From Escherichia coli (GTDB lineage Bacteria; Pseudomonadota; Gammaproteobacteria; Enterobacterales; Enterobacteriaceae), in the NCBI RefSeq assembly GCF_003334765.1, contig NZ_QOWT01000001.1: DNA of 64,000 nt; one strand, given 5' to 3'. Shown here in pieces: positions 54,443 to 55,865 of the stretch (positions are counted from its first letter, which is position 1; every line of letters starts with the position of its first letter). A model generated the notes under the pieces. It ran no database searches. It saw only the letters and a list, made by a program, of their open reading frames with translations, and had not been told where the DNA came from. The position numbers and the translations under genes were made by a program.

Positions 54443-55697
54443 CTATGGGATAAACTTATTTTTACCAATTGTATAAGGCGGTGCATAAGATTCTCGGCAT
54501 GCTTCCAGATAATCCGACCACCACTGCATCATCGCTTTGCGGGCTTCCAGGTGCTCTGCCTTATGAATATAAGCCATGCGCACGGTATTGCGCTCCTGAT
54601 GACTCATCTGGCGTTCTACTGCGTCCTTTGCCCATAAACCCGATTCCATCAGCGCACTGCATGCCATTGCCCGGAAGCCGTGACCGCAGATATCCTTTTT
54701 CGTGTCGTAACCCATCACCCGCAGTGCCTTATTGACCGTGTTTTCACACATTGGCTTATACGGGTTATGGTCGCCGGGGAAGATCAGTTCATTATTACCG
54801 GTGATATCCTTAATCTGTTTCAGAATGGCGATGGACTGTTCTGAGAGGGGGACGATATGCGGCATTCGCATTTTTGCCCCGCGGCCGGAATAATGCACGC
54901 CAATAATGGGTTCTCGCGTCGCGGGTATCGTCCAGACTCGGTTTGTGAAATCAATCTCTGACCAGCGGGCGAAACGCAGTTCACTGGAGCGAATGAACAC
55001 ATGCAGCATCAGCAGAACGGCATGCCGGGTCAGTTCACGGCCCTGATGATATGCCCCAATACGTTCAAGCAGTTCAGGCAGCCGCTCCAGCGGCAGGGCA
55101 GGATAGTGCCGTCTGACAGGAGGTGTGGTCACGCCGCCAAGGTTTGCTGCAGGGTTCGTATCGATTAACTCCTGATGGACCGCATGGCGTATTATGTTAC
55201 TCAGGTGCTGCCGTGTGCGGGACGCAACCTCCAGCAGACCTTTTTCCTCGATCCCTTTCTGCAGGTCAATGAAATGACGGGGTTTAAGTTCTGATACAGG
55301 TAGGTTCCCGATGACCGGAAAGATGTGATTGTTCAGGCTGGCAAGCAGACGGTCGGCGGTGTTCTGCGACCATTTCCTGTTACTTTTATGCCACGCCAGC
55401 GCCACGTTTTTAAAAACTTTCTCCGGTGTTCGTGAGCCACGTACAGCAGCCCGCTGCTGTACCGGGTTGATATTCAGCGCCAGCATTTTACGGATACCTT
55501 CACGTTGCTGTCGCGCATCAGACAGGGAGATGGCTGGATAGGCACCCAGCGCAATGCGGGATTCTTTACCGCTAATACGGTATTTGAGATACCAGTGGCG
55601 GGAGCCACCCGGCTTGACCCGCAGATACAGACTGTGAGAATCGGAGACTTTAAAGGGTTTATCAGAAGGCTTGAGGGTGCGGATTTTTGCGTCGGTA
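54443..55697 (-). CDS. int: P4-type tyrosine integrase of the HPI; no canonical start codon at the expected N-terminus
   Basis: Integrase frame is open upstream of the first ATG (55486) and translates as ...HISLTDAKIRTLKPSDKPFKV...; ATA sits where the initiator is expected, with an in-frame TAA eight codons upstream. Confidence 0.8.
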
Positions 55698-55865
55698 AGG
55701 GATATATGGGGGTCACTCCATTATCGAACTAACCCGACCCCAGATTTGACCACCAATTTTTCCCGATGCGTAGGGTAAAATCAAAATGCACCGAGAAGAG
55801 TTTTCACACTAACCTGTTGAATCAACATCAGATAAAGATTCGCAAGGATGCAAGAAAACAGAAAA

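Follow-up and report, generated by a model that had tools for sequence, protein, structure and literature searches.

The integrase gene of the high-pathogenicity island (HPI) fixed at asnT in Escherichia coli has lost its ATG initiator in one widespread lineage. In the 64 000-nt stretch of E. coli DNA analyzed here (the window) the codon at the position of the ancestral start is ATA. The change is a derived one; it is found across a large part of the population that carries the island, in an element that has lost its right end and in a gene on which constraint is relaxed. Most probably this is ordinary decay, a derived ATG-to-ATA change in the redundant integrase of an HPI that was already immobile at asnT. 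The altered start codon is a symptom of the decay of the integrase after immobilization, and not the cause of that immobilization.

The start region of the integrase gene

The integrase is encoded on the minus strand (Table 1). Its frame reads TAA (55723-55721) TGG AGT GAC CCC CAT ATA (55705-55703) TCC CTT ACC GAC, corresponding to stop-W-S-D-P-H-I-S-L-T-D, and from the ATA it is open for 420 codons to a TAG at 54445-54443. An earlier note on this DNA, made from the sequence alone, had seen ATA where the initiator is expected, and this is indeed what is present on the minus strand. It had also reported no ATG or GTG between the upstream in-frame TAA and the ATA; that is correct, and in-frame TTG, CTG, ATT, ATC and a further ATA are likewise absent from the interval. 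The TAA is where it was said to be in frame, but it lies six codons before the ATA, the distance of eight codons given earlier being that to the leucine of the LTD motif. The gene has no canonical full-length start codon: codon 1 is ATA, and the next ATG is codon 74. The reading frame from codon 74 encodes 347 amino acids and retains the central and catalytic domains. Judged by the Pfam boundaries, a start at M74 would delete nearly all of the Arm domain (residues 3-87), in agreement with the earlier view that translation from this first ATG (55486) would remove the N-terminal domain.

The native GGAG Shine-Dalgarno (SD) sequence is kept 10 nt upstream of the ATA. In our scan for SD sequences no SD-like motif was found at the other in-frame candidates before codon 74; downstream of the ATA the only such motif at a usable distance is that of the codon 74 ATG, and it is weak. 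The start is best described as severely weakened. The canonical initiator has been lost, but to say that the gene has no usable start, as was first proposed, is overstated, for ATA is a recognized weak near-cognate and the native GGAG stands before it.

Table 1. Features of the integrase locus and of the deleted right border of the island. Positions are those of the window.
Feature	Position	Strand	Basis and remarks
asnT (tRNA-Asn), integration site of the island	55867..55942	-	ARAGORN; 3' 17 bp (55866-55882) are the left core repeat (repeat search)
Promoter-like site TTGACA-17-TAATAT, just upstream of asnT	55961..55989	-	Consensus scan, 10/12 matches
Leader from tRNA-Asn to int, 161 nt	55706..55866	-	GGAG (55719-55716), in-frame TAA (55723-55721), mini-ORF ATGGAGTGA (55722-55714)
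ATA at the position of the ancestral ATG start (M1I, G-to-A at 55703)	55703..55705	-	Alignment with relatives; used by PGAP as CDS start
HPI integrase ORF (intB), 420 codons plus stop, otherwise intact	54443..55705	-	
Arm DNA-binding domain, residues 3-87	55445..55699	-	Pfam PF13356, E = 6.9e-23
Phage integrase central domain, residues 98-191	55133..55414	-	Pfam PF22022, E = 1.3e-22
Tyrosine recombinase catalytic domain, residues 224-384	54554..55036	-	Pfam PF00589, E = 1.6e-19
First in-frame ATG, codon 74	55484..55486	-	Weak AAGG 10 nt upstream
AT-rich stub past the fyuA stop, leading to truncated inverse-autotransporter (yeeJ-like) gene; deleted right border	24770..25419	-	

The encoded protein has the architecture of a P4-type tyrosine integrase, with the Arm, central and catalytic domains following one another in that order (Pfam, all E < 1e-19). 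The catalytic motifs are found as R239 (RSSEL), H342-x-x-R345 (HGFR), H369 and Y379, assigned by motif position and not by structural alignment. The ORF is the same as the annotated CDS of strain 2017C-4173W12. It lies 161 bp from the tRNA gene at asnT, next to mtfA, which is the placement of the asnT-fixed HPI.

The leader has some features of its own. A mini-ORF, ATG GAG TGA, overlaps the GGAG of the integrase and stops 8 nt short of the start position, and all relatives examined, other genera included, have kept it. The predicted fold of a 191-nt leader is no better than that of shuffled sequence (z = -0.53), and we make no claim that the SD sequence is occluded. At window position 55735, in the minus-strand leader (GGGGTCGGGTT), there is a G where all other sampled alleles have A. 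The exact 81-mer of the window is common to only 41 complete genomes and is thus, together with G25S in the integrase, the marker of a narrow sublineage.

The ATA codon is derived

Exactly at the position of the ATA in the window the relatives read ATG TCC CTT ACC GAC. The ATG is found in the other E. coli HPI integrase alleles and in the integrase of the colibactin (pks) island, and outside E. coli in Klebsiella pneumoniae, K. spallanzanii, Raoultella planticola, Pantoea, Izhakiella and Affinibrenneria. These six are the returns of an exact-pattern scan of genome contigs, among which Yersinia did not appear, presumably because the pattern differs there. The leader and its GGAG are conserved in all the relatives aligned. 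Because six other species and the mobile ICE-type islands of E. coli all have ATG, the ATA is the derived state, formed by a G-to-A change at the third base of the initiator (M1I). Alignment with reference integrases had been suggested in the earlier note as the way to see whether these too begin at a non-ATG codon; the other E. coli alleles and the six species begin with ATG.

Distribution of the ATA allele

How widespread is the ATA allele? The 81-bp start region was found in 2211 of 5426 complete E. coli genomes. Alleles were counted using 33-mers centred on the variable base, forcing a 28-base megablast seed across it. The ATA allele occurs in 920 complete genomes, and ATA with a SNP in the spacer in 16 more. 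The counts for the ATG alleles are 539 for ATG-TCC...AGC (D5S), 409 for ATG-TTC (S2F) and 83 for the ancestral ATG-TCC...GAC (MSLTD). At least 936 of the 2211 carriers (at least 42%) therefore have ATA, among them NU14 and the type strain of the species, ATCC 11775, and in metagenomes it is found in 11 of the 38 contigs that match the start region. It is a lineage-wide allele, not peculiar to the source genome. That the ATA is an error of sequencing or assembly can be dismissed, given the same 33-mer in 920 independent complete genomes and 11 metagenome contigs. The 47.4 kb of the window between 8664 and 56064 are 99.996% identical to strain 2017C-4173W12 (NZ_CP030768.1).

About 220 genomes remained uncounted, and a fifth allele of the start region was sought among them. 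The sampled genome CH4793 turned out to be ATG/S2F with a SNP in the spacer instead, and an S2F variant of this kind may explain many of the uncounted genomes.

Some carriers of the ATA appear to have been reassorted. In metagenome contig OGOU01001349.1 (int at ~13195-14480, minus strand) the leader and first ~20 codons are of the HPI ATA type; beyond the first 60-70 nt or so of its coding sequence the gene is 100% pks-type. The contig appears to hold a recombinant of the two asn-tRNA islands, in which the ATA start has moved onto the pks integrase. The mouse commensal strain 8178 has ATA on a mosaic background with A55T, D147A and A383G and without L149Q, M172I and R271H, which points to recombination between fixed lineages inside the integrase gene; here the name given by PGAP is that of an arm-type DNA-binding-domain protein only. 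A further metagenome contig with the ATA allele (L025) was set aside as a probable chimera, its int-ybtS being joined to an unrelated diguanylate cyclase and cardiolipin synthase at 3x coverage.

The ends of the island

The 17-bp repeat CCAGTCAGAGGAGCCAA occurs in the window only at the 3' ends of four tRNA-Asn genes, with up to three mismatches allowed. The same search of the window found no second copy at the fyuA end of the island. The two flanking repeats that characterize a mobile HPI/ICE are not both present in the window, and the repeat search thus upholds the earlier observation that the second direct repeat is missing. The fyuA gene (25420-27441) is followed by a 650-bp AT-rich stub and then by a truncated inverse-autotransporter gene. 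No excisionase or recombination directionality factor, and no conjugation module, is annotated between fyuA and the chromosomal flank. The ybt-irp-fyuA yersiniabactin cluster is complete, lying within 47.4 kb that are 99.996% identical to an annotated genome listing all its genes.

Deletion of the right border has been described as the basis of HPI fixation at asnT (Schubert et al. 2009, PMC2606025; Auvray et al. 2021, PMC8209727). Fixation is independent of the start codon, because the asnT lineages that keep ATG are also without the right repeat, as published in 2009. The earlier proposal that the island is fixed in place therefore stands, but the start codon is not a contributor to this. 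Nor is the change of start codon expected to affect mobility now, because the right repeat, the excisionase and the conjugation genes are already lost.

The ancestral-type alleles (ATG, MSLTD) are differently placed. All four that were sampled from the 33-mer matches sit at another asn tRNA gene, next to nac; a fifth, from the 81-bp region search, sits at asnT. One of the four next to nac, in strain 675SK2, was checked in full and belongs to an ICE: mobC, a regulator of the AlpA family and a virB type IV secretion system are there, and the repeat has an exact second copy. In the same strain a 16-of-17 copy of the attachment repeat (33141-33157 of the locus extracted, L061) lies about 2.3 kb inside the exact terminal copy, which may mean that a small module has been accreted in tandem at the right end.

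Probable decay of the integrase in the fixed lineages

The integrases of the asnT-fixed lineages have accumulated 18 nonsynonymous or nonsense codon changes against 4 synonymous ones, polarized against Raoultella and Klebsiella, in a set of about 17 sequences whose choice was guided in part by variation around the start codon, metagenome singletons being left out. The 18 are M1I, S2F, D5S, S21F, G25S, L29R, A55T, P57Q, E88V, D147A, L149Q, G156D, M172I, R271H, R372H, A383G, A391T and Q394*. Two mobile-type relatives differ from each other by about 8 nonsynonymous and 19 synonymous changes, and the contrast with 18:4 is significant (Fisher p = 4.5e-4). The ratio in the fixed lineages fits neutrality, at about 3.2 nonsynonymous per synonymous site, and is not significantly above it (binomial p = 0.22).

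Second lesions are present in 5 of 10 sampled genomes of the ATA lineage: Q394* in NU14, ATCC 11775 and N61, and truncation by IS1 in YJ6 and E1624. Most of the S2F-lineage members sampled carry a 347-bp deletion in the integrase gene, described earlier as intB bp 124-470 (Paauw et al. 2010, PMC2801613). Judged from these alleles, the integrase is drifting in all the fixed lineages, and the ATA is one lesion among many. Against decay, the window and about half of the ATA-lineage genomes sampled retain the whole 420-codon ORF; yet so few mutations separate the alleles that neutral drift, too, would be expected to leave the ORF intact. With the catalytic motifs present, a trace of active integrase may persist. 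In YJ6 (L003) the IS1 is followed by zinT and msrQ, which in other strains lie on the mtfA side of asnT, and the 5-kb locus is without ybtS, suggesting that IS1 has mediated a rearrangement or that the island has been lost.

The changes may not be spread evenly along the gene. Codons 1-5 are altered in all three major asnT-fixed lineages, by a different change in each: M1I, S2F and D5S, the last of these within the LTD motif. Of about 14 codon changes, 3 thus fall within a stretch of 5 codons out of 420 (Poisson p about 7e-4), a post hoc test that becomes only borderline after correction for the about 84 possible 5-codon windows. Subsets have, in addition, SNPs in the spacer between SD sequence and start, C-to-T in ETEC4091 and A-to-C in CH4793. 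Sampling was steered by variation in the start region, so that the spacer SNPs are inflated and the clustering should be taken as a lead only. The changes in codons 1-5 across the fixed lineages may be the result of parallel selection or of a hotspot.

It could be argued from this pattern that loss or reduction of the integrase was positively selected once the right att site had gone. M1I, S2F and D5S would then be independent hits, and the ATA an adaptive silencing that spread with the island. The separate changes in three lineages, the additional SNPs in the spacer and a ratio of 18:4, at or slightly above the neutral expectation, would all be in keeping with this. The integrase, driven by the strong tRNA-Asn promoter, could still recognize the three nearby asn-tRNA sites, and the possible gain from silencing would be to stop attL-by-attB reactions with these three other asn tRNA genes, a putative harm. 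We nevertheless regard selection for silencing as unlikely, since the clustering is post hoc and borderline after window correction, the spacer SNPs are inflated by biased sampling, and the excess over neutrality is not significant.

Expression from the ATA codon

PGAP at NCBI annotates an intact 420-aa CDS begun at the ATA in 2017C-4173W12 (WP_024193699.1), and further CDSs begun at ATA in other strains (WP_032180075.1 and WP_024165620.1). Translation table 11 allows ATA as an initiator, and because it does so hundreds of E. coli genomes carry an integrase that is annotated as intact.

How much integrase might be made? All 64 codons were measured for initiation in E. coli by Hecht et al. (bioRxiv 10.1101/063800), and AUA was among four near-cognates that gave 1-2%, 0.1-3% or 0.02-3% of the level of AUG, depending on the construct (bioRxiv 10.1101/063800). 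The orthologous integrase gene of ICEKp1 likewise lies 161 bp from tRNA-asn; in the integrated state it lacks its own promoter and relies on that of tRNA-asn, with which it is co-transcribed (Liu et al. 2026, PMC13023037). At the window locus our scan found no terminator-like site in the asnT-int interval, and we infer an asnT-int co-transcript with TTGACA-17-TAATAT as its likely source. The yield of full-length integrase would be down roughly 30-fold to several thousand-fold, with mRNA still made. Translation is thus expected to be strongly reduced, though not necessarily absent, because AUA initiates at 0.02-3% of AUG, the GGAG is kept and PGAP accepts the ATA.

If decay is the right explanation, events would have run as follows. 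The right attachment repeat, the excisionase and the conjugation genes would have gone before the start codon changed. The integrase gene would still be transcribed along with the tRNA-Asn from the asnT promoter, full-length translation would begin only at the near-cognate AUA behind the native GGAG, and the output of integrase would fall to at most a few percent of its ancestral level. With no excision left to perform the integrase would drift, the ATA joining the nonsynonymous, nonsense, IS-insertion and deletion lesions, and the ATA start would be without consequence for the mobility of the island.

An AUU start is used in infC, where it is conserved across species in a gene under strong constraint. 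The integrase of the window shares with infC a near-cognate AUN initiator behind a normal SD sequence, and by analogy the ATA could be a selected and functional weak start, providing a trace of integrase under the strong tRNA-Asn promoter. The native GGAG remains at 10 nt, PGAP accepts the ATA, initiation at AUA is measurable (bioRxiv 10.1101/063800), the ortholog is known to be transcribed from the asn promoter (PMC13023037), and the ORF is intact in the window. All of this would allow such a role. However, unlike the AUU of infC, the ATA is a derived codon restricted to a single lineage of E. coli, and the ORF behind it is drifting. This is not the picture of a conserved, regulated non-AUG start: the orthologs of six other species and of the mobile E. 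coli ICEs use ATG, and at 18:4 nonsynonymous to synonymous changes in the fixed lineages there is no purifying selection on the ORF downstream. Nonsense or IS1 lesions are found in half of the sampled ATA-lineage genes, and the enzyme has neither an attR nor an excisionase at its disposal. We consider a selected weak start quite improbable.

Translation might alternatively begin at the ATG of codon 74, and the resulting integrase, shortened at its N terminus, might itself have some activity. There is a weak AAGG 10 nt upstream, and the 347-aa ORF holds the central and catalytic domains. The product would be without almost all of the Arm domain (residues 3-87), and in lambda-type integrases arm binding is needed for productive recombination. 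Moreover, this ATG and its context are unchanged in alleles with an ATG start, so that nothing suggests that it evolved as a start, and one ATA allele from a metagenome has lost it (M74I). A functional start at codon 74 is accordingly very hard to credit. Decay of a redundant gene is the reading that we retain.

Relation to known islands and implications

The island of the window corresponds to the asnT-fixed HPI of E. coli (PMC2606025, PMC8209727). It shares the insertion at asnT, the gene order int-ybtS-ybtX-ybtQ-ybtP-ybtA-irp2-irp1-ybtU-ybtT-ybtE-fyuA, and the deletion of the border on the fyuA side with loss of the 17-bp repeat, fyuA abutting a truncated chromosomal gene; there is no structural difference. 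The border deletion is described in the literature on these islands, whereas the ATG-to-ATA change of the start was not found there. Indeed we found no mention of an ATA start in the HPI integrase in the literature, including PMC2606025, PMC8209727, PMC7545054 and PMC2801613.

The integrases of the mobile HPIs, ICEEc1 of E. coli and ICEKp1 of Klebsiella (PMC13023037), are orthologous P4-type enzymes with the same leader, GGAG and 161-bp spacing. Over 1263 nt the gene of the window differs from the ICE-type alleles of E. coli at 8-11 nt and from that of K. pneumoniae ATCC 13883 at 35. Unlike the window, the mobile ICE-type HPIs have an ATG start and keep the 17-bp repeat at either end, together with mobC, a type IV secretion system and an excision regulator of the AlpA family, and their integrase is under purifying selection (about 8:19), in contrast to that of the asnT-fixed islands.

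Lesions of the HPI integrase take more than one form. The HPI integrase of Y. enterocolitica 1B has a premature stop. The deletion of intB bp 124-470 (PMC2801613) affects the same gene as the ATA with the same outcome, an integrase lesion in an island that stays put. Unlike that deletion, the lesion of the window affects the initiator codon but not the ORF behind it, and annotation pipelines therefore raise no pseudogene flag.

It is already established that the HPI of E. coli, fixed at asnT, owes its spread to homologous recombination rather than to site-specific excision. Scoring of mobility by the intactness of the integrase ORF would overcall a locus such as that in the window. Beyond this caution for annotation, a possible addition to what is known is that the start region of the integrase may have been targeted in parallel in separate lineages.
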